From the NCBI GenBank assembly GCA_048213135.1, contig PS015054.1:257812-321811 (forward strand): 64,000 bases of DNA. The letters are read 5' to 3'. Made by a program: the position numbers and the translations under genes. Of this stretch, positions 16,697 through 58,200 are shown one piece after another. The notes beneath the pieces were generated by a model that was not told the DNA's origin, did not search any database, and saw only the letters and a program-made list of their open reading frames with translations. The DNA comes from Reclinomonas americana ATCC 50394 (taxonomy: Eukaryota). The first letter of the stretch is position 1. The number at the start of each line of letters is the position of its first letter.

Positions 16697-19085
16697 TTAA
16701 TCAAAGTCGGCGTCGGGATGCTGTCGCACCCACTCCTGGATCGTGTTGCGCAGTGCAATGTTGGGATACAGCACCTGCAGAGATGCGGAGAGTGAGCGAC
16801 GATGATATAATCATCACACACGTGAATAATGTGTACCTTGGAGTCGAGAGGCAAATTAGTTTTCGGGCTCCTGCACACGACACGGACTGTTACAAACATG
16901 GCACATGGAGCAACACAGCGCAGATGGGGTGAGCAACCCACCGATTATTCCTCGCCAACCAGGCCTCGATCTGCGCCCGCTCATACGTGTGTCTGCGGCA
17001 CGCACATGTCAGTCGACAGGCAGGCAAGCAAAGCAAGCACTATACGACAGACCCGTCGCTGCATGTGACTGGATCTTTCATGATCTGCGCACAGAGCGGC
17101 AGTCAGATAAGGAGTCACGCAAATACACACCACAAACAAGCGAGCGTTGCATGTACGGTACGCACTTCACGAGTGATGGCACAGCGGAACTCGTCGGGTA
17201 CAACGGGTCGTGCTGGTGGTGGTGGCGGCGGAGGCGGTGGTTGAGGCGCTTGTGCCGGCCGTGGTGGCTGCGATGGTGCTCGTCGACCAGCACCCGGATC
17301 AGGAGCAACAGATAACAATGCGGCGCCAGCCGGCGCGCCCGGTGGACCCGGCGGACCAGGTGGAGCATTGGCTCCGTTCTGCGTCCCGACAGTGAGAAGA
17401 GAAGAGAAAGCAAGCAAGCAAGCAGTGGATGGAGCTCTGAAACTCACCCGATGACTCGGAGGCGGTCCCAGCACAAGTGGCGCGGCGACGGCCGCCGGAC
17501 CCAAACCGGCCACTGGCACTGGATTGACGTACGCAGCACCCTGAGGCGGCGGTAGCACTTGCACCTGCGCCACAGACGACCATGAGCCCACATTTCAGTG
17601 CGTTGTGTGTGGTGGTGGCCTGAGAAACGCAGCGCAACTCTGTAGTCCGTGTTGGGGAAGCGATACGACGGTTCAAGCATCTGGAACGACACGATTTTCT
17701 TGTACTGGTCGGGCACCTGTGTGTGATCACGCAGCCGATGAGGGGACGGCGTCCACCGATAAAGACCAGCGCAAGACTGCAAGACCTCCATGAGCGCCTG
17801 CTTGGCAAACTCAATCTCGATTTTCTTGCGCTTCTGACGTGCTTCCGCTTTGCATTTCGCGTGCTCCACAAACTGAACGACTCGTTGAGCGGTGCGCACA
17901 TAAATGCGGACCTTGCGTGCACACAGAGGGAACACAAATTACGCACCTGAAAGTTGTCAAACTTTCGTGCCGGCAGGCCATCGTCAAAGTCGTTCATGAT
18001 ATCCCACGGTCCGTCACCAACACCAATGCACACGATAGAGAGCGGGTATTTGGTGGCTGTCGGATCTCAACGCGTCAACACCGCAGCGGAGTGCACAACC
18101 GTAAAGCAGACAGAGGCAAACCTTCCACAATGGCTGCGACGGTCTCCTCCACGCAGTCGACCGCACCTGCCCGAGAGCACATCAGTCAGCACACCGGAGA
18201 AAACAATTCACAGCTTCGCCATCCCCACCCCACCACTGTACCGTCACATATGATGAACAGGATGGAGTATCGTCGTGTGGCACGGATAACGTCCAGCGCG
18301 GCGTAGATGGACGGCGCAAAGCTGGTCGGCCCAAACATGGTCACATCGCGAACGACCTGTGCGTAGCGCTGCATGATCTCCGGCAGACTCGAGCATGGTC
18401 GGCGATCCTCTGTCAACGAGAACACGGCTTTCGACTGCAGCATGCCAACACACACATTCTCAGGAACGCCGTCACATGCGATGCGCTTGTGTAAGGAAAA
18501 CTCACCCCACTGCGCCGATCGCCAAAGCCGAACACAGTGATGTTGGAGGAGGCCAGCGGCAGCGATGTGCTGAGCGCACGAATCACCTGAGAGCATCGGC
18601 GAGTGAGACGGAATACAGGAGGCGGACAAGGTGCAGTCGCTCTCCGCAGCGATTCACCTCTTGATACGGATTGAGCGGAGGATCGAGATCGTCCTCGGCA
18701 GCCGGCTGAATGAGATGGAGACTCTTGCCACCAAACGTGCGCTGCCCGTCTGTGTGTGCGTATGCACATGCGTGTGAGTGATGCAGGCACCCTCAAAAAG
18801 CGGGCAGCCGTTGTCGGCATGCAACGACGCTCCGCAACTTCCCGAGTTGGAAGCCGTAAAGTCGATAGAGAGGAAGAGGTCGGGAGACACGTTCATCGTG
18901 CGCAGCTCATCCTGAATGTCAGTGAGATCCTTGAAGCGATCGCGAATCAAATCACGATGTGTCGCCGTGCTGTGTGCACACACGCACGCAGTGAGTGAGT
19001 GGGAGGCGAGCTAAGCAAGCCAGCGAGCGTGAGCGATGGAGGCAGACCGGACGAGTGTCGGCTGCTGCGATGAACAGCAACCCAT
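16697..19085 (-). CDS. RGLG-like copine (vWA) protein with C-terminal U-box; N-terminal MGCCSS acylation motif
   Basis: SIDFTASNSGNGQRTFGGKSLH; NPYQEVI; FGFGD; GPTSFAP; ICDG; YPLSIVCIGVGDGPW..FDDGLPARKFDNFQ; ALMEVPDQY; U-box [57 protein letters not shown]. Confidence 0.92.
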
Positions 19086-19232
19086 TCACAGCACAAACAA
19101 CACAAAAACCTCTCGGAGGACGCACAAGGGACGACTTACTTCTTCTGATATTCGCTTCCGTTTTTCACTTTCTCTTCACGTTGTTGCCGTTGCGTGTGTG
19201 ATATATGCGTGAGTGTCCTGGCCGTGGCTACG

Positions 19233-22200
19233 CTAATCAAAGGCCGGTGAGAACGACGAGCCACTGGCACCCTTGTTGGCGGCGGCACTGAGACGCTCGA
19301 CCAGCTGCTGCGACAGCTCCTCCAGCTCCGTCGGTGACAACGTCGACTGCAGCTGCTTGATTACTCGATCAACGTGCGACACTGCAGAGGACGACGGTAA
19401 GGAGAGGGGGTGACGAGCAACAGAGGCGCACGTGCAGAGCGCGCAACATGCACTGGACGAGGTGGGTTGCAGGCGGCGCTGTGCATGCATCACCGAACAA
19501 AGTCAGCGATATTGTGCAATCCGCCTATGCACCCATGCACACACAAACACAGAAGCAAGCACGCGACAACGTACCGTATTCAGCTTCCGGCGCAGCTGCT
19601 CCGGCAAGCAGCCCTGTGCCGCATCGACAAAATCTTCCATACCGCGGCCGACGCGGTACGCCACGTCACGGCGCCAGTGCTCCCACGTCTCACAACGACC
19701 CCAGAACTTGGTGATGACGGTGACAATGTCTTTGAAGTAGGAGGCGTGGGGGCTCTTCGTTTTCGCCGTGCGGATGATAGATTCGTACATGTCCCGCGCC
19801 TGTTGCAGTTGTTCGGCCTCGGATCCCTCCTGCGTTCGGCGATAGAAGCCCTTGTCAGGCAACAACAACAACAACTTGCACTGGCCGATAGGCATGTACA
19901 GCTGACAACACGCACCCGATAGGTTGTCAACTTTGTCAACAGACCAGCCAGTTTTGCCGAGGTCTCACGGAACGCACTCACTGTGTGAAAGAACGGCCAA
20001 CGCGTGAATGACGGCAGCCAACGGTCACCAGCGTTGAAAACGAAAAGGGAAAGACTACGCAACCAGGGCCCCAGCGACTGCGCAGATCATACGACAGCTG
20101 TGCGACAGCGGCATCCTTGGGCACTAAGATGATGGAAGCAACACACGTGAGGAGACGAACACGCGAGGAACCAAAGAAAGGGTGAACAATACCAGAGGCC
20201 GGTCGATCAGGACCTGGCATGCCCAAGTCGACACGAGCGTTCTTGACGCGTTTGATGAGACTCTTTTGAGTGGTTTTCACGGAGTCCTCGATGCTGCGCA
20301 TGAGCGGCTGCATTTGCACCTGGAACACGCGGCTCAACTCGGCCTGCACGGACGACAATTGTGAGAATGAGTGTTGATCACAGGCTCGAGAGCGCAGCAA
20401 CGCACCGCTGCATCCTTTGATGCCTTCTCCATGTTGTGCTGTGCAGACATGCAAGTGACACGTGAGACTCGCAAGAAGGGAAGCAAGCAGGGAGACGTCG
20501 CTTACCGATGCCGGTCCGTGTCTTTTGATAAAGTGCCCATTGAGCACCGCCACGGCTTCGATGAGCTGTTCCGCAGCGCATGAAGCGCAGAGATGAGGAA
20601 GTGCTTGGAAGCAGACAGACTGCACTCGGCCACACTAACCGCAGCCTTCATGGCCGGCGCGACAGTTGGCCACGTGCACAGCTCGGTCAGATGCGTCTGC
20701 AGCTTGAACACGCCTGTGTGCGCGTGCGCGCGGCAGTGAGTGCGTGAAGCTGTCGACTGCAGAACCACACCCGGCGTATCGAGCCTACCAGCATCCACCA
20801 GAACCTGCTTGGACACCTCACGGCTGAAAATGTACTGCATGACATCGGCCATCGAGCGCAACACTTGCGGTACCGACTCAGGGATCGGCACCGACAAGAA
20901 CGCTCTCTCCACGGCATGCATCAACTGTGCCCATGCGCCCACCAGCGGTGAGCATTCTACCAATGACGGGTCACAATTTCCTTCCGTCTACACACACATG
21001 CACACCTGCTCAATGTCCACCATGCCCTTGTCGAGCTCCTGTCGGTCGCTGCGCCACCAGCGCGACATGGTGCTGTGCACCGGCTGGCGAATGCTCTGTG
21101 TGTGCGCAATGTATAAGTATCATGGCAGCAACACACAGGGCACACTTATCGCGGACGTACCGCCAAGCTGGTGTCCAGCGCCGCACCAAAGTACTGCTCG
21201 ACCTCGGTCATCTGTTTGGCAGCTCATTTGTGAGCATCATCGAGACAACGCACGAGCATATTCTCGTCTCACAGCACCATCTTCATCATTACGCCGTTGA
21301 TCTTGCCGTCAATGCGTTCCACCTCCAGTGCGCGTTGGATAAAGCCGTAGCGCGACTCCGCCATCTCCGCGCATTGCTTCGACTGCGTGTCGAGCATGTC
21401 ATCCAGCAGGCCTTCTCGCAGACACAGGTCACGAATCGATCGTGTGTAGAGATCGAGGTCTGCCGTCGCGCCAAAGCGCAATCGGTACTTGGCCAGCAGC
21501 ACATCGGCACACACGTAAATGTTCTCAATAATCTGCACTTGGCCGGGTGAGACATGGAGGGAAAACAGAGACTGGTACAAATACTTACGCACCGGAACCG
21601 TGATGCAAAGCAACTGCATGGCGAGAGAAGCATTAGCATTGATCCCAACAAGTGGACACCAATAAAACGCAACGCGAGAGTCCGCATCGGCGACTCCATA
21701 CTTGGTCAGCGTCTGCGTCTCCTCCTCCATCAACCAGTGTCGCTCGCCGAAATCCATGTCCATCATGCCGTGCACGCGCACCGACCGAGTGTGCGTTTCA
21801 CGATCGCGCAGCTGGCGATAAAAGGCGAGCAAGTTATCGACGCCTGCAGAGCACAGGTGAGGAAGGAGCTGGGGAGAAAAGAGTGTGACAAGGGAAACAC
21901 CCCGAACCGCCGACATTGATGATCTGGAACTCGCTGCCGAGCATGGCCGTGTACAACTGCGCACAGTTGTGAGATATCACGCTTCACGGCAACGATGGGG
22001 GACACAAACCTCCTCATCGAGGGCGGGAGTGGCATCGACGCGAGCCGGCTCAATATCGTCCGGATCAAACAACGTATCGCGTGACGTCGGTGTCGTCGCA
22101 GGAGCCACGTGGAGACCGCGCTCGCCTTCCACCAGCAGGAACTGTCGACGGAAACCCTCCACGCGAACCAGCATGTCTGACACGCGCACACAAACGCAAA

Positions 22201-25200
22201 AGGTAAGTTCACATATTTGCTCCCGCAAGAACATCGCCACCAGAAACACCATACCCAATCGCAATCGCTCGCGTGAAGCTTCGCCGAAACGAGAGACGTG
22301 CACCACTTCGCGCATGGCCTGTGTGCAACGCATCAGTGACTGAGCTGGAGAGACGAAATTAAAAGCAATGCCGGCAGTCACCTTGATGCTGGAGGTGTCC
22401 GTCGGGTGAATGAGCACTGCAGCAACGAAACAATCAGCAGGTGTCGACAGCACACGAGATGAGTCGCCGCAACACGCAACTGACGTGAGCTCCCGGCAAG
22501 ATGGCGAATGCGTCGCAGTGAGTGGCAAACACAAAGAAGCATTTCGGTCGCATGAGCATGAGCTGTGCGGCAGCAGTGAGCGGGGGAGGTGTCGACGATG
22601 ACCAACAAATGCAAGTGTGCACACCCGTCGGAACATGTCCACTGCCAGTGCGGTATTCTGCACACACGGCAAAAATGATGAGTTGAAGGGCAGCCACGAG
22701 TAACAGGAGTCCCTCTACAGACTCACCAAGTGCGCCTCTGGTTCCTCCACGAGGAAGAGAACCATGTCGTCCTGCACGGCAGCGAGTGTGAATCAGATAA
22801 AAACACACGTGAGGATTGAGATATGGACTGAACAAGCAGAAACCTTGTTCGTGTTCAGAATCTCCCACAGGGTGGACACTGCACTCGAGCTTGAGAGTAG
22901 CACGACAAGGAAGACAAGGAGACGACAAAAGACACCACGCACCAATGGACCGTGTGCCAGAGCTCATCTCTTCAATCGACGTCATGGGCGTCAACTGGCA
23001 AACGCCATGCGCCGCCGGTCAGTCCATGTCACACAAAGATAACAGCAAGCTCGTGACACGCACCAGATTGGCACTGGCCGGTAGCAAGCCTACTCGACCT
23101 TCGCGCACCGCAAACAGCATGTCCGGCCACAGCGGGTTGATCGAGTTGAGCTCGTCGATTACCTGATCGCCCTCCGCAGCCCAGCGACCAAACACCTTCA
23201 GTTCGGAACTCGTGAGATCCTCGACCCTGGCTCCGCGCTCGGCACGCAGCATCAGACTGCGATGGCCAGGCCAGTCGAGCCTGTGCAAGAAAACACAAGC
23301 ATTTGAGAGGGCCAGGGCGACCAGCAGCACAAGACACAGTGCCCACGCAACTGCTTCAGCAGCAGACTCTTGCCGCTACCGTTGCTGCCGTACAGCGACA
23401 CACAGCTGGCTCCCGAGGCGTTGGCGTTGAACTGGAACATTGCCGGCTCCGAGTCGGAGATGCTCCAGGAAAACGTCGGCTGCGCAGAGCACGAGTTAGG
23501 ATCGGTGCACAGATGAGCACAACGAATGCATGACGCACGTGGGCACGGAGCTCCAATCGCAGCATGTCCACACGGAAGACGCCAGGTTCCGCCGCAATTG
23601 GAGTGAACCAGATGCGGTCACGCTCAATGGCCTCCTCGCGAATCTCCACATCGGCTGCACGCGGTAAATCGTGAGCGCGAGTGAACAGGAGAGGCAGTTA
23701 GGTCACACGAGCAAACGAACCAAATATGAGCGGATACTGCATGCGCCATTCGGGTCGCGTGCGCTGCGTGAGCATGGCCATGCCGACTGCATATACAGAT
23801 GCACATCGTTAGATGCATACAACTGGCGACAGGTAAGCAATTGCATGAACTCACTGCGCTCGTGGAAAAAGTCGGCCGGCGACACCCCCACCGGCGGCAC
23901 CACCTTCCAGTCGGCGTTTGCCGGAATCAGAGTGGCGCCCTGGTACAACACTTTGAAGCGCGTGGTAGCGATGCGCGAAATGCGGACGTCGGCGGGACTC
24001 AGCGCCAGCGCCACCATGTGGCACTGCGGATCATTCAGCAAGAATCGTGCGACGTCGGCCGACGGATGGCTGCAAAAGTAGGCGTTGATGGCCGGCGAGA
24101 GGATCACAAAGTGCTGCGAGGTACATCGACCGACGAGTGAGTCTCTGGTGGCGGTGCAGCGGAGGGCAAATGTGGCGTACAAACCTCCTCGGGCGAGTCG
24201 TACGCCAGCACGTCGTTGATGAGGCGCAACCACGGCTGGAGCCAGTCGCGCTGACGTGTCAGCTGCGCCGCACTCGCCAATACCACTGTCCACAGCTCCT
24301 CGGGTGGCTATGCACAGACGGAAACAGTTAATGAGATAGATGGAGGTGGAGGGATCGCAGCGGGGGAGGAATGAGCGGAGACAAACCACGCTGGTCAGCA
24401 GCAGACTGATGCTCTCGTCGTCAGCCACAACGTCCTCCTCCTGCACTGGAATCGGTCGCGGCGGACTGCCAGCACCAGGTGCAGCGGCAGCAGACAAACT
24501 CGACGCGCCGCCCGTCACCGTGAACACGTGCTTCATTTGGCGGAACAGGTCGCCCAGCAGACGCGCTACCCCCAAAAGATAACAGAGTCAGCGCAATGAC
24601 CACCAACTCACGCTGCTGCGTTGCCATACAGACCGGGGAGTGCCGACGCCGGCTCGCCAAAGGCGCGCAGCACCAGAGACACCATCGAAACCAAGGTCTT
24701 CAGCGGCAGCTTATTTCCCGGCAGCACACGCAGCACGTGCGCCGCGGCCACGGCCGCCAACGACATTTGTGGACGGCGCTCCCTGTGGCACACAGCACTC
24801 ATAAACACACACACACACACGCAGAGCAAGTGCACGCCACACAGGCACCCTCACTTGAGTTTCAGCGGATTCAGGACCTGCTTGATCGCCTTGACAACAG
24901 CAGCCGAAATGTGCTCGGCACTGGCATGCGCGCCCGGCGGACCGGCCTGCAACGAACAACACACACACACACACATAGGTCACTCATCCTGCATCTCTCC
25001 TTCTTCCATCATACTACAAGCACGCAACCACTGAGCGGCCGTCACCATCAATCAGCGCACGCAGCTGCTCAGCCGACAGCGTCGTGATCCTCGACAATTG
25101 TTCCTGTGTGGTGGGCCAACACATCAGTGGAAAAGCCAGGGACGAGACACCAGCGAGAAACACAGTCAGTCTCACCTCAGACACGCTGCACAGCTCACAC

Positions 25201-25699
25201 AGCAGCGAATGCATCGACGTGACGGCGTACGAATCCAATGGCTGGTATTGAAAGCGCGTCGGAATCTATGCATCCCCCCCCGAGGATTAATAAGCAACAA
25301 GCCAGGCAAGGCAGAGAGACACACACAGGTGGAAGAAGAGACCGTGGCAGAGGAGGCCCACTGTGAGCGCGGCGAGGTCATAAGTGCCTCAATGGACGAG
25401 GAGGGCGAGGAGGAGGCCTCGGCCGCGGTGGCCGCCGCCACCTCCAAGCTGCGCACAAAGAGCTCAAAGTTGGGCGCCGGGAAGATCTTCTTGTACCGCT
25501 CCACGAGGCACTCGGGCCATCGCCAGTGCAGTGGATCACTATGTGTGAGAGTGAGAGTGAGAGGAAAAAAAGATGCGATTGGGTGAATGCGAACACACCA
25601 GGCTGGGAAGGCAATGCTCACGTCGAGGTTGACATCGGCGAGAGAGGGAGGAGAGGGGAGACCAAAGGTGTCGCCACAAGCGCTTGCAGTGGTGCCCAT
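19233..25699 (-). CDS. Large uncharacterised protein: helical N-terminal region, central Walker A (GSNGSGKS), helical C-terminal region
   Basis: Chain of exons on the - strand from MGTTAS (myristoylation-like) to ..SSFSPAFD*; CVSLYGSNGSGKSLLLKQ near 23350-23405. May be more than one gene. Confidence 0.6.
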
Positions 25700-25885
25700 G
25701 CTTCGTTGCTTGTATGATATGAATGCGTGACAAACAACGAAGATCCTGTGTCCCGCGCGCGACTTGTTGCCGGCGAGTGGGCAAGAGACACCCGCGGCTC
25801 ACTGCTGCTGTGCAACGCGTGCGGACGTGTGGAGTGCGTGCGTGTGGGAGAGAAGAGAGAAAGAAAAACGCCAACTGCTGCTGTC

Positions 25886-26335
25886 ATGGCCAAGCGTCTC
25901 GTCCGTTGCGTGTGTCTCACACGACACACTCTTCTCTCTTCACTCAGCAGCTCACATGTGACATGCACAGCCCCGCCCTCCACCGGCCTTCTACCAGCGG
26001 CACTGACCGCCATGGGCTTTGTGTGCTCTCCACTCGCCCTCGTGTGGTACATTCGCAAAATCGAGGGCGTCTCGCACGCTCCTGCGCATGCTGCTGCTGC
26101 TGCCTCTGCGTCCATCGACGACGACTATGCCACACCTCGAGGCTCTTCATCTTCCTCTCTGTCATCATCATCATCATCGACAGGAGCAGGCGCACTACCC
26201 GACGGATGGCGACAAGAACGACCTGCGCAATCGCCATTCATACGACGCGGAGGCTCTCGCGTGCCTCACGCACCCTCGTCTACACTACTCGCCTCTCCTC
26301 CTCCACCACCAGAATCAGAAAGCAACTGGGAGTAG
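25886..26335 (+). CDS. Small putative single-pass membrane protein
   Basis: MAKRLV, intron 25905-25970, then PPPSTGLLPAALTAMGFVCSPLALVWYIRKIEG with a Ser/Pro-rich tail. Confidence 0.5.
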   Translation: MAKRLVRCVCLTRHTLLSSLSSSHVTCTAPPSTGLLPAALTAMGFVCSPLALVWYIRKIEGVSHAPAHAAAAASASIDDDYATPRGSSSSSLSSSSSSTGAGALPDGWRQERPAQSPFIRRGGSRVPHAPSSTLLASPPPPPESESNWE

Positions 26336-27519: not shown

Positions 27520-30500
27520 TCACAGTGGGGAGATCTTGACGGTTTGCACCTGGAAGCCGCGCAGGAACAGTGGAATCGACACGAGTCCAGTCTCGGAGAC
27601 GGCGCACACGGCCGAGACTGCATGTGGCGTGAGTCGTGGGATGGAGGCAAGGAGCGCAAACGAAAAGGGAACGCAACTATCCTCCTCGTCCTGCTCGAGC
27701 AGGTTGCAGAGAGTGACGACTGGTGGCGAGCTGGCGGTGAGTGCCGAGCCCTGCACATTGAGGGCCACCTGGCACCGTCCTCCGAGACTCTCGTACACGC
27801 GAACAATGGTGGCGCGACTGCCTGTGAGTGGGTCAGTCACCTGCCGACACACTCTGTGTGTTTCCGCATGCACACGAACCATCGGCATCCGCGTCCTCGG
27901 CCTTCTTCACGCAGTCAACAATGACGCGTGGGTTGCTGACGGAAAAGTACGGCTGCGCCGGCAGCTCGAGACTGTCATGTGCATACGAGAGTCAGCATTT
28001 CCCGTAGCCACACGACGATGCACCTGTCGTCACACTCACCCAAGTCCGACAGGGAACACACGGGGCGGGGAATTGAACTGGTGCGCCAGCGCCACGATGC
28101 GTGGACCGGCCACGGTCAGATTGCCGGCATGCGGATAGAAGGCGTAGCGGAAGCGCTGTGTGCCCATGTCGCAGTGGCCGTCCTGCAATGCCAGCAGCGT
28201 GAGCATGCAACAAAACCACGCAAATGAATGCACAGGCAAATAATCCCACTACAAACCGGTGCCTTGGGCGACTGAGGCAACAGTCATGCAAAACAGTGAG
28301 CACGCAGTAATCTCTAGGCTCGAGATATAAAGGGGAGGAGGAGGTACGCACGCGCAGAAGTGACAGGGTGAGCAGATTGCGGTGGCAGCTGTGGCCGTAC
28401 TTGCAGTTGTTGAACAGCGAGACGCCAAACTCCAGCTCCGACACGTCTGCCCAGCGGTGGCCACACACCTCGAACTTGGCTGCGCGCTACGTTGTGAGTT
28501 GTCTTGAACATCATCACAAGGGAGAATATATACCACCACGCACCCATATCCCAGCTGGTGTTCTTGTGCGTCGGACGATCCACGTAGCCGTACGGAACCT
28601 CATACGAGGCATTCGTAGGTGCCAGCGTCAGCGGGAACGCCACCTTTAGCATGCGTCGGTTTTCGTGCCACTCGACGACCGTGTCGAACGTAATGTACGG
28701 ACTGCACGCATCGACAATGATGCGCTGGCGGAGTTCGCTGACCGGCGAGATGCCGTGCGCCAACAACAGCACCACGCGTAGTGGACCGGCTTCCTCCACC
28801 GTCACCGTCACTGGAGAGATTGATTCTTCGTGAGCAGCGCACTCACACATTCGTAGACTCGCAATCGCTCACCCAATGCACTGCTGCCGGCAATGGGACG
28901 CAGCGGAAGCGTCTTCTCCAAGTGATAGATCTCCACATCCCACGCGTCCCAGAACAATGGAATCTGCGACCAGAGTTAGCACTTTCGTCGCACAATGGAA
29001 CAGCTACATGCAACGCACGCAACATCCTCGTGCAGCACAAACTGGTTGCCGCCGGTGGTGGAGGTGTCGATGCACTCGTGGCCGGTGGAATTCTCACTGC
29101 ATTGCAGCAGACGTCCGGTGCTCTTGGAGAAGGCGCAAGTGAAGAATTGGTTCTGGATGGTGATGACACCATCGGCACTCTCCTCCATGGACACTGGCGG
29201 CAGTTCGGCTGCGGCGCTGTTGGCCGCGGCCAGCGACACGGTCGAGATGCCCATTCCGGTGCACTGCACGCGAACTGCGCAATGCACATGACGTGAAACG
29301 AGTTCAGTTGTGTTTCTCTGCGCTTGGTGACGACAAGCGCACGCGTACCGAGCGGAGTGCCCGTGTCGGCCGACATTTGCGTGTACTCCTTGGGCATGAC
29401 GACCTCGGCGTCGAGCGCAAAAGGCGATGTGCTGTCCACTTCCACCAGCATGTCTACAGGCTGCGCGTGCTGATTGAAACACACCAGCTGCATGTCGGGA
29501 ACCGCTGCAACATTGTGCATGCGCACGGGGTTAGCGAGCAGCAACAAAATGCTTGAACAGAGTCGACACAAACGTACCCGTCGACGGGAATTTGTTCAGC
29601 ACGGCACCCAGCGCCGCTTTCAGTCGCTCCTCGGCCTCGCTCTGCACCTGTTCGTAGATGCGAAGAGCGTCGTCGTACACACACTCGATCGATGACCCCG
29701 GGAGCACATCGTGGAATTGGTTGCTGCGAGAGAGACACAAGTTGGCCGGGGGAAAACAAAAAACCCAAGCAACAAACATGCGACGCACAGACACACGAGG
29801 GTCCACAGCTCGTTCAGGTCGGCAGACGGATAGACGACCGAGCTGTCGAGTTGCGACAGCAGCGTGGACCACAGCTCGAGCTCGCGCAGCAGCAACTCGC
29901 TGCGGCGATTGCCAAGTTTTGTCTTGGCTTGTGAAGTGTAAGTGCCACTGCGGTGCAGGGGAGTTGAGAGTCTAGCAGGCGCCTGTGAACATGAAGATGC
30001 AGCATTGGAGCGCACCGATGGAACTCAAAGTACAGCTCGCCGACCCAGTCCAGAATCGGGCCATTCTCACGTCGCACATGCTCAAAGTACTGGCTCGGCT
30101 TCTCAATGGTAACGATCGGCATTCCGTCGACGTTGCGCAAGCGCCGTGCACGTTCCAGCATCTCGGTCGTCGGCCCGCCGCCACCATCACCGTGGCCAAA
30201 GAGCAGCAACGAGTGCCGCGTGCGGCCATTGTCCTGCATCGCGCAAGGGTGAGCAGAGAAGGTCAAAGGGTGAGCAGAGAAGGTCACAGGGTGAGCTGGT
30301 ATCTGTGGTTCCGCACCTTGCTGTTCGAGACCGAGCGCAGTACTTCCTCTGCGGTCACTCGCGAGTTGTACGTGTCGGCCGGTGGGAAATGTGTGAGAAT
30401 GCTGCGTAATACTCAGTGAATGATACAGCGGGGGATCGAAAGACAAGCAAGTCACCAACCGAGAGCCATCGAGAGCCTCCCACCAAAATGTGGTGTGCGG

Positions 30501-35809: not shown

Positions 35810-38800
35810 TTACTTGTGGATGCCAAGCTGTGCGTAGGTGGTCGCAGAGTGAGCCGCACTGCAGTTGGAGAGACAGGAGACAATGTGCAATCACCTCTTG
35901 GAGCACAGCCTCCAGCTGCGGTACTTGTGCCGGATGCAGCACGTGCTCCCGCAACACATCCATGGCCGACACGAATCGCGACACAAGCTCGGTGCTGGCG
36001 GTGGACAAGCTCGACGCAGAGGATGCCGGCTCAGCATCCCGTGGTGGCTGTACGCAGACAAACGTGAGCGTCGGCCATTGTGTTTTCATCACGATGGAGC
36101 ACTGTGCGTAACTTGACTGCGTGCCTGTCGCTGCAACCGGAAGCGCAGCTCCTCGTTCTCGGCAGTCGACTGCTGCGCTCGAGCCTTCCACTCGTCGCGC
36201 TCCGTCGACAAGACGCGCAGCTGCGCCTGGTGCTCCTCCATGGCCGCCTCCAAACGATGACACCGATTGATGGCTTCGTTGATGTCCTGCTGCGCCTCGC
36301 CTTGCACGCGCTGCAGCTCGCTCTCCAGCAGTTGGGCATGTTGAGTCGCCGCACGGAGGTCCTTCATTATCTCCCTGTGCGTAGCACATACACACAGAGT
36401 GAGTGCCAGATGTAGAGTCAATACACGATACGGCGCCGCAACTGCTGCTTCCGTGCCGCCTTGGTGGCCTTGGCGACTGCTTGCTGTGACTTGCGCTCTT
36501 CGGCCTTGGCACGGTTCTCCAGTTGCTCCATTTGCGATTTGAGGCGCGTCAGAGCCCCGTCCATCACCTGCCGGTACCGACGGTATTCGTCGAGTTCACT
36601 TTGCAGTCTGATTTGTGCACTCAGGCGGTGAGTGACAGCGAGTTCCACAGCAACAACCACAACAACAACAGCGACGAAACTTGGCGATGCGCTTCTGACT
36701 GATTTCGGTATCTGGAGTCGTCGGCAGATCGAACCGCGTCAGTGACACGTCGGTGGGTGTGGCCGATCGTTGCGACAAGTCAATAGCAGAGGCACTTGGC
36801 GTGGCGGCGGTCGACCCGGAGTACGAACGACGGCGAGGAACAGAGTTGGAGGGTCTACCGAGCATCGGAATTGGTGACGGAGCTCCCTGCGGGAAGCCAG
36901 TAGACGCTGCATTGGCGCGCAGTTCCACGCCAGCACCGCGCGGCTTGCCGCCTCGTTGCACATCGGCGGACTGCGCTGGTGGTGATGCTGGGCGCAGCGA
37001 CGGACCTGTCTGCTGTTGATGCTGCTGTTGATGTTGTTGGTGCAACTGTTGCTGCTGTTGTTGTTGCTGTTGCTGCTGCTGTTGTTGTTGTTGCTGGTGG
37101 TGGCGCATCAAATTGTCACGCAAAACGCGAGCCTCACGCTCACGACCCTCCAGGGAGCGACGCAGGTCTTCGACCTACACGCAGACATGAGTCAGACACA
37201 GTGATTGGTGAAGCGCAGGCACGTCGCCAGCCGACTCACCGTGGGCTCGGCGGCGGCGGCGGCGGCGTTGCCGACAGACACCTGGTACACTCCGTGCCCG
37301 TGTGGGTCATAGAATGGCGCAGCACTGCTTGGCCGCGTTGCAGTGGCCGACGGTGCAACTGCTTGTGGCACTGCAGATTGCGGACGCACAATGGCGCCAT
37401 TGTGCAGCGGTGTGCGATACGATGGGACTCCCGGAGCCGCCATGGGTGCAGCTGTTGGTAGGGGTGCCTGAGGCATTTGCATGGGCGCGGAGGAGGTTGC
37501 CGAGCGAGAGGCAGACATGAATGCGGCCGCAGCGGCTTCCGAGGCAGAGGCAGTGACCTGCGTGAGTGATCGATGAAGTCAGCGTTGCCGGCACACATGC
37601 ATCCCGCCGAGTTAGTGGCACGTGCCTGGTTCACAATGTCGTCCACCGACAGACCAGCAAACATGTCATTCGCGACCAATGTGCCGACAGGAGGCGGTTG
37701 TGACGGATGTCCAACGGGAACGCCACGAGCCGGAACACCGTGAGTTTGCATGGACTGTCCAGCTCCTGCGGCAGCAGCAGCAGCGGCGGCGGCGGCAGAA
37801 CGAGCACGAGCTGCATAGCTCGGCTGCGAGGACTGCAGGCCGCTTTCACCACCGAATCCGTTGCTGGCGCGAGCAAAGGTGGCCCACGGAGACTCCTCCG
37901 GCTCAATGTCGTCTGTGCCCGATGAGGATGAGTGAGTGTGTCGGGAACAGAGCAACTTTTAGTTGGGAGTGCGATGTCACACCGTGGGACGAATCGACAG
38001 AGTAGTCGTCTTCGGGTGGTGGTGCCGATTGCGGCCTGCCTGTTGGATGTGTGTGCGACTGCTGCGCTTCCCAACGCGCAAAGTCATCCGAAAACACCGA
38101 TGACGACGACGGCACATACGGTGGCGACGGTCCGTCAAACATGGATCGCAAGCGCACAGCCAGCATGTGCACTCGTGTGGCCAGCGCCAGTGTGGCACAC
38201 CCGGAGATGACCGTATCGCGATATGGATTCACCATGCATAGGAAGGAGCACCAGCGGCGACCGACCAAGCTGTAGATGCGCATGAGAGAGGTCGCCACGA
38301 AAGAGTGGTCCCACACAGGAACGCACCTGTCGCGCAGCAGCAGGGTGATCTTTGACTTGTGGAACGGGGCACTTGGGCGTGCGTTCTCCAAGTCTGTCAG
38401 CACGTGATCCAAGTGCGTCAGCCACAGCATGCTCGCCGAATCCGTGCACTGCGCGTTAGACCACAGATCAGCATCTCTGTGCCAACAAGACGACTGAGAT
38501 CAGGAGGAGTACCTTGTCCGGGGCGCCGAGAACCACCACATACAGTGTGCCGTCTCGCTCGTGACGACTGCAGTGGAGTCATGGTCAGTGTCACCAACAC
38601 ACTCAGGCGTGGGGGACGCACACACACACGAAACCTCTGTGCATTTCGTGATCGAAAGTGCAATCCGATAATGGTGTGCGCTCCGCGTGTGGTGTTCTTC
38701 TTTGCACTGCAACACGAGTGAGGTGATTGAACATGGAGGGCACTGCCGATGCAGGATGTGGGGAACCCACCGCAGGAACTGCGACAGCGCATCTTGCAGT

Positions 38801-39324
38801 CCACTGATGGGTATTCTTGTCGCACCCTCCACCACGATGCCGTCCTGCAGAAGCTGGAGAGTGAGCCAGCCGCGATCAGCAAAGCACAACACAGGAAGGC
38901 GCACACGCACCTGTGCATCGTCACGCAGTCGCATGGCGTTTTTCTTGGACGATGGCGTCGCGCTCGGTCCAGCCGCCGCTGACGACGACGACGAGGGAAC
39001 GAGCAAATCGCGCAACTCGTCACTCGAGCACTGCACACACGACAGCGTCGTGGCGGTCACGTGGACACCCGACGGGTGTCGTCCGGCCTGACCCAAACCT
39101 CCAAACGACAGCACTGTGCGGCGAGCCAAACAGGTGAGCCACTCGTCTCGTCGCAGCCACCCACACACACTCAACTGTCGAACGCATGCTGCACCGCCCG
39201 CAGAAACATGCCCATGTGCTGCGCCGATGCTGCACCCTCCAGCACAAACTTTTTCCCCGACGCCGAGCTGCCCGACAGAACCAAGCAGCTCACACCGCCC
39301 TGTGGCGCGCACTTGTAAGGAGAA

Positions 39325-39368
<44 letters not shown>

Positions 39369-39763
39369 CACACGCGCCACGCACCATCACGGCCTGCTCC
39401 ACCAGCGGTCGCACCTCCGTCTCAAACACCTCCTGCTGCGCAGCGCCGGCCTCGTACACGCGATCCGCAGAAAACCTTTACATCACATCAGACACTCGCG
39501 CGCATTCTCTCTCTCTCACACACACACACACACGTGCGCACACTCAACTGATGCGAAGTAGTGTGAAACTCATCCGTAAACAGGGCCACAGTGCCCGTCT
39601 GCACATTGCTCTGCAGCTCAAACACGGGACGTCGCATCGCGGCACCTGCTCGATCCTCACTGCCACTGGCTGCGTTGCGCATCGCCGCAGTGGAGGAGGA
39701 AGAGGAGGAGTCATCCTCAGGACCGTGCACAGCGCCAATGCGAATGGCCACGCGCAGTGCCAT
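35810..39763 (-). CDS. Divergent kinesin motor-like protein with polyQ linker and C-terminal coiled coil
   Basis: LRVAIRI; FSADRVY..QQEVFETEVRPLV; GSSASGKK; ELRDLL; GIVVEGAT; APFHKSKITLLLRDSL; CMVNP..ATLALATR. Confidence 0.75.
37011..37097 (-). repeat. CAG/CAA trinucleotide repeat encoding polyQ/His
   Basis: TGC/TGT triplets on the + strand translate to HHQQQQ...LHQQHQQQHQQQ on the - strand. Confidence 0.9.
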
Positions 39764-39840: not shown

Positions 39841-41527
39841 ATGAGCGACGAGGACGACAGCAACGGTTGCGTCTCACTGTCTCTCCCTGTGTGTGCGTGC
39901 GTGTATATGTGCGTTGAGCTCACTGGGGGCCAGCAGCTTCTGAGGAAGAGGAGGAGGACGAGGATGATGAGGATGACGACGACGATGATGATGATGATGA
40001 CGATGATGACGATGAAGACGATGAGGAGGAGGAGGAAGAGGAGGAAGGCGGCGATGACTTGCAAAAGATCTTGTCGAGTTGCGCTGTCGCCAGGTGGAAT
40101 GTCAGTTTGTGTGATCATCTCACGTGCGCTGCGCGTCGCGCAGACTTGCCGCTCGCCTCGCAGCACTTCCGCATCACACTGGAGGTGAAGAACGGCAAGC
40201 TGATCAAGTCGCAGTTGGAGATCTTGGATCCGAGTGAGCTGCGTGCGGTGGCCGCGGCCAAGATCCAACGGGCGTGGCGGCGTCATGCTGCGCGGCGGCG
40301 AGCTCATCGCGAACGGTATGCTTTCTTGTCCCCCTCCCCCCCGTCGCAGCGATCGCCAATTGTCGGAGCTGATCGTGCCACAGGTACCAGTTTGGTCAGC
40401 TGTCGGATGGAGTCACGCAGACGACGCCGCGTCCGGTTGTCGATGCGGGTGACATGCCGCCGCTGTCGCCGCGTGATGTGGCCAGTCGGTATCCGCGACC
40501 GTTGCGTACACGGTCGCCGTCGCCGCCGGCTGGCAACGCAGAGTTGTACCAGCACACCAATTTTCCTGCGTTGCCGCCGCCGTCCATGTCTGGCCGTGCA
40601 CTGCGCAACAGCCGTGATAGTGGCGTGGGCATGAGTCCGCGCAGCAGCGGTGGCGGTGCGGATTTCGGCGATTATGTTCGCGGTGCTGCCAACAGGTGAT
40701 GCGAGTGGCGATTGCTGTCGTAGCGGTGGTGACTCACGTCGTCCCGCGCAGTGATGCTGTGGGTGAGCTCAGCTTTCGTGGTGACCACCGTGATCTCGTC
40801 AACGATGCCATCTCCACTCTACTACACCCATCCTATCGTGCCACTCCGTCGTCCCGTGGAGTCGGCTCGAGGCAGATGTATGGGTCGTCGAGCGCGCCTC
40901 CTCCCGTGGAGAGTGCTCCGTTTGCACCGCCGGTGCTGCCACCAAATCCCACGTACTTTCAGCGGCTGGCTGCGGCAGCGGCTGTCGGCAAGCAAGTGCT
41001 GGAGCGGGGAGCGACACCACGCAGCGACACTGGAACTCCCGTGTCGTCGGGCTACGGTAGTTCACATCGACGAGGCGATCAATCGCGCTTTCCACCGCCA
41101 GCGCCCGCCAACAATCCCGCCAGTCTGTATGCAGCCGCACCGCCACCCTTACAATCCTCCTCGTCGTCGCGGTACAATCCGTCACCAACGCAGCACATCA
41201 TGTCACAGACTGGATTTCGACCACCGGTACGTTGCTGTCGTTGACTCTCTTGCCCCCGGCTTCGAAAAAAGCACTGATGACCGATTGCGCTGACTACCAG
41301 CAGCCACCAGCGCGGGAGCGCGCTTCACCCGCGCTATCCGACGTTCGGGTTGGAGGCATCCGTCAAGGGCGGGGACGTAACGGACAGTTTCCACCAGGTA
41401 CTGTGGCGCACAGGCAGGTTTTTTCCGATTGTTGTCACCAACCCACCAGCGCAACCGTTTGCATGCAGGCGTGGCATTCGACGTGTATAGCGAAGCCGAT
41501 GCCGCACTAGGGTACTCGAGGCAGTGA
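39841..41527 (+). CDS. IQ-motif protein with poly-Asp/Glu N-terminus and Pro/Ser-rich C-terminus
   Basis: AAAKIQRAWRRHAARRR (IQ motif); GAT/GAG repeats at 39942-40040; 3' end inferred through short introns. Confidence 0.65.
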
Positions 41528-52964: not shown

Positions 52965-55169
52965 ATGTCGGAGCCAGGAGGCGGTGGTAGCGATGCACCC
53001 CCGGCTGCAGCAGCAGTCGAGGCGCCTGCACCTCCGTCTTCTTCGTCCGAGCCCGCCGCACCTGCTGCGGTACCGGCAGCGCCGGAGGTGCTGACTGGCG
53101 GCAAAGTTGAGTGGTCATTGCCACTTGCACACACACACTCTCTCTCCCTCTTTCCCTTCTCACTCCCCTCGTCGCTCTCTCGTTGACTCATACACACACA
53201 TCTCCCTGACTCATGCACACTCGCTGCACATGGTGCATCATCCACACACACTTGTCCTCGAACACGCACGCACACACTCATTCTCTCTTCCTCTCGCACG
53301 CAGTTCCTGGCCAGCTTGGACTCGCCAGTGCAATTCTTTCGCGGTGACAACGAACAGCTGGAACAGCGACTTGCGCTCCTGCTGCAAGTGTTGAATCACG
53401 CAGAACACTTGTCCGCCGCCGAGCATCGCGCCCTGGCCACTCTCTTGTTGCCACTGAGCACCGAGTGGCGCAGCTTGCGTGCAGAGGGCAAGAGTGCTCG
53501 TCGAGGTGCGCATGCGCGCACACACATATACACAAACAATGTGCAGGAGGAATACTGATTGGTGTTGGTGATGAAATAGATGCTCTGCCAGTGCTGGGTG
53601 TTGTCGGTGACTACTTCATGTCGCGTGTGCGTCACTGCTGTGAGGCTGGCGAGCGGGAGCAGTGGGACGACGAGTGCTCGTGGACGCTTCGTGTGGCGGC
53701 GGCGCAGGTGCTGGGCGTGCGACTCAGCAGCCCGGCAGTGACATTTTCCGACGCCTGCAAGGCTGCGGCGGAGCTATTTGTGTTTCCTGTGGATCCAGCC
53801 GATCGCCGCCTGCTGGAGACGCATCGTGCGAGCGGAGTGACGAATACGGAGAGTTGCGCGCGCACTCGTGTGTGTACATGAGAGCGATGGTTGTTGTTTC
53901 CGTGGCTCACTGCAGCGTGTGCAGGCGATCGATTTGTGGAGAATGCCATTCGCAGTTTGCTCGCCCCGCCCCGTTCCTCTGGTGGGCCTCCACCGTTCCC
54001 AGCATCTGGATCGGCAACGGGCTCCTCGTCCTCTTCGTCTTCTTCCTCTTCCTCCTCCACCGCGTCGTCGACAACAACGACAGCAGCGGCGTCGGCGGCG
54101 TCAACAACAGATGCACCGCCGTCCATCGACGAGTTGTACCTGTCGCTCATGTTGCAGGAGCGCGACGCAGTGACGGCGTTCCTGCAGGCCTCGCGCATCT
54201 TCCTTCTCGGAGTGGACACGGCCGTCGCCGCCGATTTGAACTTTGTTGCCGATGTCATTCTTTACTGCAAGGACTACTTTGATCATCGTTTCGTGCCGTC
54301 ACTCTCTATCCCTCTCTCTCTCTCTCTCTGTGTCCATCTCATGCCTCTTGCGGCAGGTAACGAGGGGAGCGTGCAAGCAGTGCGCGCCCTGGTCGATGCC
54401 CTCTTTGAGGATCCCCTCATTGTTCTGTGCTTTGAGGCGCAAACTGCCGAGGCTGTCGAGACGGTTCGGGCACGCCACGAGTCATCCCTCTCTTCTTGCT
54501 GTTGACGCACAGTTGTGTCGTGCGACCGCTGCAGGTGTTCGGTCGCATCAAGCAGATTGCCAGTGCCGCCACGGGCCTGGGAGCTGATGCCGCCTGCTTC
54601 TCCTTGCTCACGTTTGTGGCCGCTCGCTGCCTCAGCACGTATCTGATTACGTCGCCGCGCACCGAGGGCGATGACCCAGCGGATTCTGCCGCCGTGCAGC
54701 CGCCGTCGATATTTGAGAATCGCCTGCTGCACGTGTGCTACGATGCACTCATTGAGGCGCTGCGCCACATGCCGCGGGTGAGTTGACACTCCATCCATTT
54801 ACGCCCACCGCCCCCTCCTCATGATCACCACTAACTTGCTGTACGAAAGCAGCAGCCGTCGCAGATGATGGAGGAACTGGCTGCGGCCATGTGCACGGAT
54901 ACGCATTCGCTGTTCGACATTGCCGTCCACATTTATTTGCGCTCGGTTCTTGACGCATCGCAGTCGGTACCCGCCGCACCACCGGCCCCTGTTGCCGCAG
55001 CACCGGCCGCCACAGTCGCTGCAGTAGCACCCGCGGCACCGCCGGCTCCTGTCGCTGCAGCGGCAGCAGCACCATCCGCTGCGGCGCCAGTTGCTCCCCC
55101 GGACGTGGTGGCCATCTCCGAAGCCAGTTGCGACCACGCTCATTTTTTGTCTTCCGCCTCGGCACTTCT

Positions 55170-55216
<47 letters not shown>

Positions 55217-58200
55217 GTCTCCCTGTCGCCCAACGTTGATGGATTCGATCTGGCGTCGTTGTTCGGTCCGGCAATCACTGTCGTCTCCGCCGCGCAATCG
55301 TTTACGCCAGTCGGGGCAGTGCAGCCTACATCCGCCACCAAGCCCGACTGGAACCGGTGCTCCGAGGCCGCCCTGTCATTTTTGTGCGATCTCATGGCAC
55401 ATGTCCGCCGTTCCACGGAGGTCTACAGTGTCTTTTGCTCGACGCTCACCGACCGCGCCCTCGGCCGCGCTGTGCGACTCATCTCGCTCATCGACACGAT
55501 GGATAAGCGCCGTTTCGTTGAATGTCGGGCACTTTTTCCTCTGCGATCTCGTCCTGACTTGCGCTGTTGACGTTCATAGCCATCATGAAGAAACTGCGCG
55601 ACTTTGCGCATGCTTTCCGCAGCGTGTTGTCGCGTGAACCACAGGATGCCGAAGTAGAGGTGCGCGCCGCCGCCTGGACTGTGTAAATATGTGGGTGTCT
55701 CATAGAACATGTGCAGGAGCGCATGTTCCGTGCGTTTTTGGCAGTCCACGGCGGCCAGTGGCGCATCAATAGCACGGTGGATGAGTGCGTACTCATTGGA
55801 CCCACGCTGCTGCACATGCTCCAGACGCACTCGCCACTGCTGTCGGTGGCGTACGCGGCGCTCCTGCAGTCGATTCGTTCATCGCTCGTGAGTTTCCCAC
55901 CAATCATACAGTTGCCTGTCTGTCGTCTGCGTTCTTGTTGACTCGTGTGGCGTGCTGCAGAACGGTGACAACGAGGCGTTGTGGTCGGCGTGCAATGCGC
56001 AGTTGGCCACTTTCGTGGTGCTGGCTGGCACGCAGAGTGCACGGTTGGACTTTGTGCGTGGCTTGAGCGAGGCGATGCAGTCGTGCAACCTGGCGAATCT
56101 CCATGGTCAGCGGCGTATTGCGTTTGCGCAAACACTGGAGGTGCTGCGTGTGGCGGCTGTTGCCAAGCGGCCTTCCAGCGGACTCTTGAAGAGTCTCCGC
56201 GGCAACGGTGCGTCGGGGGAGATCTTCGCGCACGTGTGTGTGTTCGCGCACGCGCGAGTGTGTGTGTGACGAGTAATCTCTTGCAGTGTTTACGCAACGC
56301 GCCGTCAGCGAAACATTCTCGGTTTCGTTCCGCAAGTCGCCGTCCATGGATTTGCGGTCTGCACGATCGGAGAGTGTGTCGGATGCGGGTCGCAAGTTTC
56401 GCAGCTGCTGTCGTTGGTTTTTGTTTGCCTACCTGCTCGAGTAACACGTGGGGTGGGGTGCAGACACTTTTTTGCCCTGCCGGCATTCGACAGCGACGAA
56501 GGCGACAGTGCTCCCGACGCCACAACATACGCGTCGGCTCTCAGTGAGCCTTCTGCAGAATCCGCGGACCTCATTCCGTTGCTCAACACGCTGCTGAACG
56601 ACATTGTTGGCCAGGTCTCTCATCATCCTCCTCTCGCCTCTTGCTCATTGTTCTATTGTCGGTTCACCATGTGCTCTGTCGACAGTTGCTGCTGTTGGCG
56701 GACTCGCGAGACGATCCGGACGCGGAAATCAGCGACTATGCGCTGTACAACTCGGTTGTTTTCCTGCGGGATGTTCCGTTTGTTGATCCCGCCAACAGGT
56801 GTGTCTTTCTGTGTGTCGTCGTCTGCCACAGTCGCGTGCTCACTGGTTATATGCCACTGTAGTGCCCTCAGCTCGGTGTCTGTTGCAACTGCCCTGGCAC
56901 TGCTGAACCGCAGTGTGGGCGCTCGTCAGCTGGTGGTTGTGGAACCGAGCAAGTCGGCGCCGCTTGTGCCGAGCACGCCAGCAACGCCGGCGAATGCAAC
57001 TCTCAGCACCGCCGTGTTGAGCACACCTATGACGGCTCCACCCCCTGCACCGCCAGCGCCACCACCACCCCCACCAACAAAGAAGGGTGAGTGACAGTGT
57101 GTGTGTGTGTGTGTGTCGTCTGTGCGCTGGACGATGCAGCGATGTGACAATGGTGTATCCACCAGCTGCCACTGCTGGCTCAGCATCCGGGCCGCCGCCG
57201 CCTCCCATGACGCCGGCGAAGAAGACGAATGTCGGTGCTCTGTGCGAGCTGCTCGACAGTCTGATGACTGTGGTGAACACGCTGGATGCATTCTTGCACC
57301 GTGTGCCTGAGGCGGAGTTGATCAGCCGTGGTCGCCTGGTGGACTTGGTGCGTGGGAATGAGATGCAGGTGCAGCTTTCGAAAAATTCGGCGCTGACTTT
57401 CCTCGCAGCTGCTGCACATTGTGGGCGACGAGTGGACGCGACTGGAAGATGCCTACCTCGACGCCGTCTCTCAGTCCTCCTCGGTTGACACATCGGCAGC
57501 CGGTATGTCAAATGTGTGCGAGCGTGTTGTGAAGTGTTGCTAACTGAGCGATTGCCGCTGTCAGCTGCCTTTGTCACGGCCTACACGGAAGCCGTGCCGA
57601 AGCTGCTGTCCCGCGTCACGTCGTTCATCGGCCGCGAGATTCACTGTGTGCAGGCCATTGAGGATGTGGAGGTGGCACGGGCAGTCGCGCGAGCTGGAGA
57701 ACCGACCGCAGCCACCACTGCCGCCGACGCCGCTGCTGCCGCCGCTACTACGTCGGAGTCGGTTCGTTGGTCACCCCCGCCAAAGTGATAATTGTTGAAT
57801 TATTGGCTCATGTGCACCCTACTTCTCGGGTTTGCAGAAGTCGACACGCACGCCCGCTACGGTTCTTCCGCAGCTGATTGGCGCCGTGTCGACCGTGCCG
57901 ACACTGCGTCTGCGGCCTGGGCGTGCACTGATTGAGCAGGTCGTCAAGTCAGTCGGTGCGCAGTGAAGCAGATAGCCAGCCGTGCGTCTGTCGTGAGTCT
58001 GACCTGAGTGTGGTGAATAGGGCTGGCGCAGGGCGACATCTCCCTTCCACGTTGGCACCTGGGCTCCTCCTGGTCGCCAACGGGCGCCTTTGACGGTGCG
58101 CTGCGCTCGGCTCGTTTGGTCAACTACCGCTCGCTGCTGTTGCACGGTATGCACGGCAACCCGACATGCAACTGGCTCTCGACGCTGTCCGTGGTGCAGG

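Follow-up and report, generated by a model that had tools for sequence, protein, structure and literature searches.

A second class of predicted 5' splice sites in a 64-kb window of Reclinomonas americana DNA, possibly read by U1 one position out of register

Can a 5' splice site be read by U1 in one register and cut in another? This question is raised by a divergent kinesin-like gene that lies on the minus strand of a 64-kilobase (kb) stretch of eukaryotic DNA from Reclinomonas americana ATCC 50394 (assembly GCA_048213135.1, contig PS015054.1, positions 257,812 to 321,811), here called the window, to which all coordinates below refer. Two introns predicted in this gene begin with GTTGAGT, as does the candidate first intron of a UBR-box gene on the plus strand, and a preliminary description of the window had taken these donors for sites of the GTGAGT family displaced by one base. 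Our analysis assigns them to a larger class, H/GTTNNGT (the slash marks the cut), of which GTTGAGT is a minor member and which consists mostly of GTTGCGT. We give an even chance to the reading in which the kinesin introns are ordinary short GT-AG spliceosomal introns whose donors belong to this second common class, H/GUUNNGU in RNA letters, and are read one position out of register. The window has a G+C content of about 59%, contains 2 runs of N, and carries dense, intron-rich genes whose introns have a median length of about 68 nucleotides (nt), CTNAY branch-like motifs and CAG ends. Introns were called throughout from reading frames, homology and statistics, with this single window as the sample.

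A second donor class that requires T at +3

Introns were predicted with our own dynamic-programming gene finder, which scores codon usage, a GT donor with nothing beyond it, an AG acceptor with bonuses for YAG and branch motifs, and an intron-length prior. A second version gives an equal bonus to three motif types (GTNNGT, GTTNNGT and GT[A/C/G]NNGT) and predicts 146 introns. Donor classes were counted in those gene-finder models of the first, donor-blind version that have at least four exons (208 donors), and 2,259 same-strand exonic GT sites served as background; a donor k-mer test against a loose branch and YAG motif had a baseline of 20%, too high to be informative.

H/GTTNNGT is a real donor class that needs T at the third intron position (+3). 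It accounts for 24 of the 208 donors vs 27 of the 2,259 exonic GT sites (odds ratio 10.8, p 1.4e-13), and the canonical GTNNGT type for 69 donors vs 134 exonic sites (odds ratio 7.9), whereas the control type GT[ACG]NNGT, at 7 donors vs 99 exonic sites, is not enriched (odds ratio 0.76, p 0.59). The raw donor-blind model, with 226 donors, holds 73 G/GTNNGT, 25 GTTNNGT, 7 GT[A/C/G]NNGT and 121 other donors, and the 146 introns of the equal-bonus model comprise 73 with GTNNGT, 27 with GTTNNGT, controls with G (10), C (5) or A (1) at +3, and 30 others. Of the 24 members of the class, 22 lack a competing GTNNGT or GTTNNGT donor in frame within 60 nt; the introns opened by the 24 end in CAG (22) or TAG (2). 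The class is probably larger than the strict GTTNNGT count.

The composition of the class parallels that of the canonical donors after displacement by one position, although not uniformly. Positions +4 and +5 are occupied by GC in 15 of the 24, by TC in 4, by GA and GT in 2 each and by TG in 1, with C at +5 in 19 in total, and positions +3 and +4 of 64 canonical donors most often by GC (17) and GA (13). The G-rich position that follows the final GT shifts together with the rest of the motif. At the last exon position (-1), G is present in 43 of the 64 canonical donors vs 3 of the 24 shifted ones (Fisher p 6.7e-6), the latter frequency being no different from that of G at -2 of canonical donors (19/64, p 0.17); A stands at -1 in 11 of the 24, as compared with A at -2 in 12 of the 64. 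GTTGCGT is used as a donor at 19 of its 37 copies, vs 21 of 133 for GTGCGT, 22 of 91 for GTGAGT, 1 of 18 for GTCGCGT and 1 of 23 for GTGGCGT. The heptamer GTTGAGT is itself not enriched, having 9 copies on both strands vs 13 for GTCGAGT and 10 for GTGGAGT.

These counts bear on three proposals made in the preliminary description. That the shift spans both the GTGAGT and the GTGCGT families was right in that a wider GTTNNGT class exists, but the GTGAGT family is shifted far less often than the GTGCGT family. The argument for a register change over a single motif gains from the need for T at +3 and from the loss of the exon-final G, and loses from the dominance of GTTGCGT within the class. The CA noted in front of the donor proved not to be general, as only A at -1 is raised.

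Protein-level comparison in two further genes bears on whether the cuts are correctly placed.

3446 to 5379, minus strand: haem-peroxidase gene with 9 introns, 5 of them starting GTTGCGT (hand-built model; An_peroxidase match)
5291-5223, 4855-4789, 4015-3952, 3810-3755 and 3725-3657, minus strand: the GTTGCGT introns of the peroxidase gene (hand-built model)
28964 to 29023, minus strand: intron of a GH38 alpha-mannosidase gene, donor T/GTTGCGT (Glyco_hydro_38C profile continuity)

Across these two genes, profile comparison supports three of the predicted GTTGCGT junctions. The peroxidase exon at 4142-4648 matches An_peroxidase with an expectation value (E) of 1.4e-31. A profile built from 61 homologues of 450-900 residues, out of 150 returned, gives a 29-residue gap-free alignment across the junctions of the introns at 3810 and 3725, and the conserved frames that flank the intron at 4855 require an intron length of 1 mod 3; the junctions at 5291 and 4015 lie outside the profile-aligned regions. 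In the GH38 gene, the exon ending at donor 29023 ends at position 43 of the Glyco_hydro_38C profile (E 0.16) and the next-but-one exon starts near positions 68-71, leaving 28 residues between the two exons vs 24 profile positions; a homologue search with the GH38 exon found nothing. The GT...AG boundaries of the peroxidase model preserve frame, as do those of the kinesin model. If the donor alone were moved by one base, all profile-supported frames would break, and if donor and acceptor were moved together no consistent 3' dinucleotide would remain, as the first exon base after the shifted introns is T in 9, G in 7, A in 4 and C in 4.

An assembly error was considered for these sites and rejected: were the true sequence GGTGCGT, cut after its first G, the exon would gain one base and the profile-supported peroxidase frames would be lost. 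The peroxidase homologue further has a hydrophobic N-terminus and one intron of only 48 nt (4152-4105), and the gene finder had split the gene in two.

U1 pairing and the proposed change of register

Pairing energies were computed with a standard U1, namely the human U1 5' end as given in PMC4856993, which may not be that of this organism. With it, none of the three GTTGAGT donors forms a stable duplex in the canonical register (0 kcal/mol), and displacement by +1 brings them to -8.2 (39548), -8.6 (39175) and -5.1 kcal/mol (53106), as compared with a mean of -6.0 kcal/mol for canonical donors in the canonical register and -1.6 kcal/mol for exonic GT controls in the better of the two registers. 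The phrase "textbook shifted donors", used for them in the preliminary description, is therefore fair for these three sites, and a comparison of both registers, made for the standard U1 only, finds the canonical one neither equal nor better for any of them.

We infer a changed register rather than a separate motif. The main donor class, G/GUNNGU, with the forms GUGCGU, GUGAGU, GUACGU, GUUCGU and GUUUGU, and the second class would be the same site, the second having the first intron G replaced by U and being cut one base upstream, with the intron's own G at +1 in place of the last G of the exon. The loss of G at -1, with G+1 standing in its place, fits such a change. The presumed reader would be U1, whose 5' end would pair one position downstream of its usual place, with G+1 opposite C9, U+2 facing C8 unpaired, U+3 opposite A7, and G+6 and U+7 opposite C4 and A3. 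The catalytic spliceosome (U6, U5 and Prp8) would then set the cut at the one GU that the site contains. The simplest single account would be one U1-type site, G-[G/U]-U-G-C-G-U, cut before whichever GU exists, and a U1 5' end that is predicted to suit GUGCGU.

A number of observations weigh against this reading, to which the alternative donors and the comparison of registers given in the next section must be added. The gene finder over-predicts, as judged from the false introns that it places in the intronless Rpn8 gene (4 in the donor-blind version, 1 in the equal-bonus version); 108 of its 208 donors match no motif, and sampling is limited to 64 kb. The class reproduces the canonical spectrum unevenly, with GA in 2/24 vs 13/64 and no GTTAC or GTTTT members. 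Canonical donors have no preference for A at -2, so that the raised A at -1 of the shifted class needs an additional argument of "compensation". Finally, GUUGCGU (n=15) scores -0.36 kcal/mol in the canonical and -1.07 kcal/mol in the shifted register with the standard U1, and GUUUCGU (n=4) scores -0.30 kcal/mol when shifted; the bulk of the class pairs with this U1 no better than random exonic GT sites.

Since GUUGCGU is poorly paired with the standard U1 in either register, either the U1 is altered or something else reads the class, and an account based on U1 needs an altered U1. The U1 of this organism would then carry G at position 5 (G5), which is also what the shift model predicts of its 5' end. 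Such a U1 would account for the predominance of GUUGCGU over GUUGAGU within the class. In the shifted register, the class mean moves from -1.34 kcal/mol with the standard U1 to -4.6 with a G5 U1 and to -6.3 with a U1 carrying both G5 and C6 (G5C6), and GUUGCGU itself reaches -6.26 and -8.3 kcal/mol, respectively. A search against Rfam at gathering thresholds returned no match in the window, which therefore holds no U1. We put forward only tentatively, at somewhat below an even chance, the wider proposal that about 1 in 5-8 introns is cut one nt upstream of the usual cut of the shared motif, that the U1 5' end is altered (G5, perhaps C6), and that shifted recognition is mainstream in this genome. 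That GUUGCGU serves as a donor about as often as GUGCGU or GUGAGU forms part of this proposal and is advanced with the same reserve.

Recognition in the ordinary register would be retained if a second U1, a changed U1 5' end or a protein reader recognised GUUGCGU and its relatives as a separate motif, of which the GTTGAGT donors would be rare variants. The dominance of one heptamer (GTTGCGT in 15/24, C at +5 in 19/24) and its near lack of complementarity to the standard U1 in either register both favour such a reader, and U1 5' ends are known to vary in some lineages, according to the sections consulted of a preprint (10.1101/2022.06.08.495308). Against it, a single letter in eight separates the GTTGCGT class from canonical G/GTGCGT, with the G-rich position that follows the final GT counted in, which makes one reader the more economical account, and the members GTTTCGT, GTTGAGT and GTTGTGT run parallel to canonical GTTCGT, GTGAGT and GTGTGT. 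We regard a separate motif as unlikely, though far from negligible.

The GTTGAGT donors and their alternatives

The donors that raised the question, and those near them, are as follows.

37983 to 39763, minus strand: divergent kinesin-like gene, first nine exons (motor-like region); spliced model open for 414 codons
39476 to 39548, minus strand: intron 1, 73 nt, CA/GTTGAGT ... CTGAT ... AAG/G; links the frame of exon 1 (stop 39487-39485) with the FSADRVY exon (Kinesin 43-71)
39300 to 39384, minus strand: intron 2, 85 nt, canonical donor G/GTGCGT, listed for comparison (gene finder, spliced model)
39114 to 39175, minus strand: intron 3, 62 nt, ACA/GTTGAGT ... CTCAC ... CAG/T; in-frame TGA overlaps the donor; chosen by the donor-blind gene finder
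38568 to 38634, minus strand: candidate intron 6, 67 nt, donor G/GTTTCGT; chosen by the donor-blind gene finder
53106 to 53303, plus strand: candidate first intron of the UBR-box gene, 198 nt, AAA/GTTGAGT ... CAG/T; frame-correct; chosen by the equal-bonus gene finder
54288 to 54380, plus strand: candidate intron, donor C/GTTTCGT; chosen by both gene-finder versions
58209 to 58270, plus strand: candidate intron, donor A/GTTGTGT; chosen by both gene-finder versions

The letters are as first described, with GTTGAGT at 39548 and 39175 (minus) and at 53106 (plus), GTTTCGT at 38634 (minus) and 54288 (plus), and GTTGTGT at 58209 (plus). The minus strand reads catca/GTTGAGTGTGCG at 39548 and cgaca/GTTGAGTGTGTG at 39175, and the plus strand reads ggcaaa/GTTGAGTGG at 53106. 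The kinesin-like assignment of the host gene comes from Pfam Kinesin (PF00225), which is the only match for three separate exons at collinear profile positions 43-71 (E 0.051), 76-112 (E 0.019) and 259-290 (E 0.047); with single exons searched rather than the spliced protein, each match scores 13-14.4 bits and lies below the curated cut-off of 29.3. The open reading frames (ORFs) of the gene have weak kinesin matches in the PDB (E 0.17 and 0.78), and a homologue search with the kinesin ORF found nothing.

The preliminary description had assigned both kinesin introns GTTGAGT donors, and for intron 3 this assignment is firm. The frame of its upstream exon runs gac aGT TGA, and the GT within that stop is the last usable one; the exon must end before the TGA, so that the predicted intron 39175-39114 is forced by frame. 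Within 60 nt a single further GT is in frame, at 60 nt upstream, and the exon that ends at this donor is the one matching Kinesin positions 76-112. Donor 39175 is the only one of the three GTTGAGT donors to be forced in this way. Intron 39548-39476 is plausible and frame-correct, but its donor is not unique: in-frame GTGTGT alternatives are found at 39533, 39527 and 39521, and the gene finder took 39533 over 39548 in every run. The AAG acceptor of this intron is rare, being found in 2/64 canonical-donor introns and 0/24 shifted-donor introns.

The candidate first intron of the UBR-box gene, previously labelled UBR4 intron 1, is likewise plausible as a frame-correct intron. Exon 1 starts at ATG 52966 and its frame stops within the interval 53106-53303; in-frame GTs also occur 18 and 36 nt upstream of 53106 (g/GTGCTGA and g/GTACCGG). 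The three remaining sites, 38634, 54288 and 58209, had been offered as fitting the same rule. They do belong to the GTTNNGT class, but two of them gain little or nothing from the shift with the standard U1: 54288 has a shifted pairing energy of -0.6 kcal/mol and 58209 scores 0 in both registers. Donor 54288 has a single in-frame alternative GT within 60 nt, which is of neither the GTNNGT nor the GTTNNGT class, and 58209 has an in-frame GTGTTGT 3 nt downstream. At 38634, canonical donors that keep the frame follow after 6 and 12 nt, G/GTGTGT at 38628 and T/GTGCGT at 38622, and the energies of 38634 itself with the standard U1 are -4.2 kcal/mol in the canonical and -2.1 kcal/mol in the shifted register.

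It could accordingly be supposed that most of these donors are mis-called, the true ones being 39533, 39527 or 39521 (GTGTGT), 53088 (G/GTGCTG), and 38628 (G/GTGTGT) or 38622 (GTGCGT), in which case at most one GTTGAGT donor (39175) would be real and would alone carry the extension of the shift to the GTGAGT family. The alternatives preserve frame, 39533 is the gene finder's constant preference, GTGTGT donors with G at -1 are predicted elsewhere in the window, and the model leaves the other sense-strand copies of the unenriched GTTGAGT heptamer unspliced. Donor 39533, however, has C at -1 and reaches only -3.9 kcal/mol with the standard U1, vs -8.2 when 39548 is read in the shifted register; mis-calling cannot account for 39175, and the wider class is solid. 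We judge mis-calling on this scale to be decidedly unlikely.

A further possibility concerns the register itself. U1 might keep its pairs at -1, +1 and +2 while the U at +2 or +3 bulges out, leaving +4 to +7 to make the pairs usually made by +3 to +6. The part of PMC4856993 (Tan et al. 2016) on which we draw lists a register with such a bulge, at +3 (or +2), for human donors, and with the standard U1 the bulged and shifted registers score alike (-1.21 vs -1.34 kcal/mol), the shift being better in 5/24 donors and the bulge in 3/24, a near tie that counts against the register shift. With a bulge, however, the pair between G at -1 and C9 should matter more, yet this G is lost (3/24 vs 43/64), and any bulged base should serve, yet GT[ACG]NNGT is not enriched. 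The altered U1 5' ends likewise favour the shift: with the G5 U1 the shifted register beats the bulged one in 17/24 donors and loses in 3, and with G5C6 it is again better in 17/24. A bulged U is thus improbable. Lastly, a start three bases further on, giving GC-AG or GA-AG introns (GTT/GCGT, GTT/GAGT), is rejected as very improbable: the move preserves every frame and at 39175 also avoids completing the TGA, but the base three before GCGT in NTTGCGT is strongly G (G 37, A 10, T 7, C 3), as expected if the GT is cut, no parallel G/GC class is seen, and GA-AG introns would be needed for the GTTGAGT cases.

Two other origins for the introns were rejected. Introner-like repeated introns are not indicated, as an all-against-all blastn comparison of the 146 predicted introns gave 68 matches, all of them in GT/CT/CA microsatellite tracts. 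U12-type introns have a long conserved 5' splice-site box and a branch box of the minor type; here the donors are GTTGAGT or GTTGCGT, the branch motifs are CTNAY-like, and no minor-type box was seen by eye. Microsatellite runs of GT, CT, GA or CA lie directly 3' of the donor or 5' of the acceptor in many introns (39300-39384, 39476-39548, 53106-53303 and 55127-55217, for example) and give rise to strings of alternative in-frame GT donors. Predicted donors of the form GTTGCGG, GTTGCGC or GTTGCGA, without the final T, occur at 36442, 18838 and 17638 (minus) and at 55127 (plus), in parallel with canonical GTGCGC, GTGCGA and GTGCGG.

Additional features of the two host genes were noted. In the kinesin-like protein, the nucleotide-binding loop and adjacent motor motifs appear degenerate by eye, and the protein may be a catalytically inactive motor; a long glutamine-rich run lies in the downstream part of the gene (36600-37200, minus), and a plus-strand ORF just upstream of the gene start contains a long Asp/Glu run (39918-40100, plus). 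In the UBR-box gene, a zf-UBR match at 60014-60349 (E 1.6e-9) places the UBR-box exon about 7 kb downstream of ATG 52966. The interval 52966-63995 (plus) is probably one very large UBR4/BIG-like gene that runs off the window, and the gene-finder stop at 57094 is probably an artefact. Within this interval, an exonic GTTGAGT at 62782 (plus) is an in-frame alternative to the canonical G/GTAAGT donor at 62839, 57 nt away and with the same acceptor, and a GTTGCGT at 61587 (plus), 29 nt after an acceptor, might mark a micro-exon missed by the model.

Elsewhere in the window, the Rpn8 gene at 1904-3325 (plus), which encodes JAB/MPN and MitMem_reg domains and a long C-terminal extension, is apparently intronless, in contrast to neighbours that have one intron per 200-300 nt. 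Its homologues reach a best identity of 45-53%, and a metagenome scan returned 4 loci at 39-55% identity. AT skew reaches +/-0.24 per 2 kb over the whole window, with more T than A on the transcribed strand (e.g. 16000-26000 and 54000-64000), and by itself reveals gene orientation.

Significance and comparison with known systems

If RNA data were to confirm the proposed shift, the genome would offer a natural experiment on what fixes the exact 5' cut once U1 has bound, in which the place of the available GU would alone decide at which of two positions one shared recognition motif is cut. Were shifted recognition indeed mainstream, it would amount to a natural, genome-scale separation of the U1 binding site from the cut site of the spliceosome. 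There is also a practical side: gene finders trained on G/GTNNGT would overlook a large part of the introns of this lineage or set their borders wrongly, and in the peroxidase gene, where 5/9 introns are shifted, a one-base error at a donor breaks the frame.

In human, shifted-register 5' splice sites have been described in which all pairs between the site and U1 move by one position and the cut stays at GU (Roca and Krainer 2009, as summarised in the part of PMC4856993 used here). Judged by energy with the standard U1, the three GTTGAGT donors resemble these sites. The class as a whole differs from them in being dominated by GUUGCGU, which the standard U1 does not explain, and in its frequency. 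The same account of PMC4856993 gives 1.5% of 201,541 human 5' splice sites as predicted to use validated bulge or asymmetric-loop registers, a small minority to set beside 24/208 to 27/146 of the predicted donors in one 64-kb window, with the proviso that the human figure is for bulges and loops. The class shares with the human registers that bulge at +3 (or +2) a single additional U separating the GU from the block that pairs downstream; unlike them, it has lost its exon-final G and tolerates only T as the extra base, neither of which a bulge predicts.

Among other lineages, the Archamoebae provide the closest parallel for an altered reader. In the sections of the preprint consulted here (10.1101/2022.06.08.495308), Mastigamoeba is given a U1 with ACGUAC and donors of the GUGCGC type, and Entamoeba a U1 with ACAAAC. 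The window resembles Mastigamoeba, with its C-rich +4 donors and a G opposite in U1, in that an ACGUAC-type U1 would make GUUGCGU a good shifted site (-6.3 kcal/mol); it differs in that those sections mention no donor class shifted by one base. Thecamonas and Micromonas, according to the same sections, have a standard U1 despite C at +4. A paper on diplonemid splice sites describes, in the portion consulted, G/GTATG and non-canonical ends rather than a GTTNNGT pattern. In the literature searched we found no genome with a GTT-type shifted class as a major donor type, by which we do not claim that none is in print. Recognition in a shifted register is thus already known, and what is unusual in this window is mainly the frequency of the class and the puzzle posed by GUUGCGU, rather than the two GTTGAGT sites from which the question arose.

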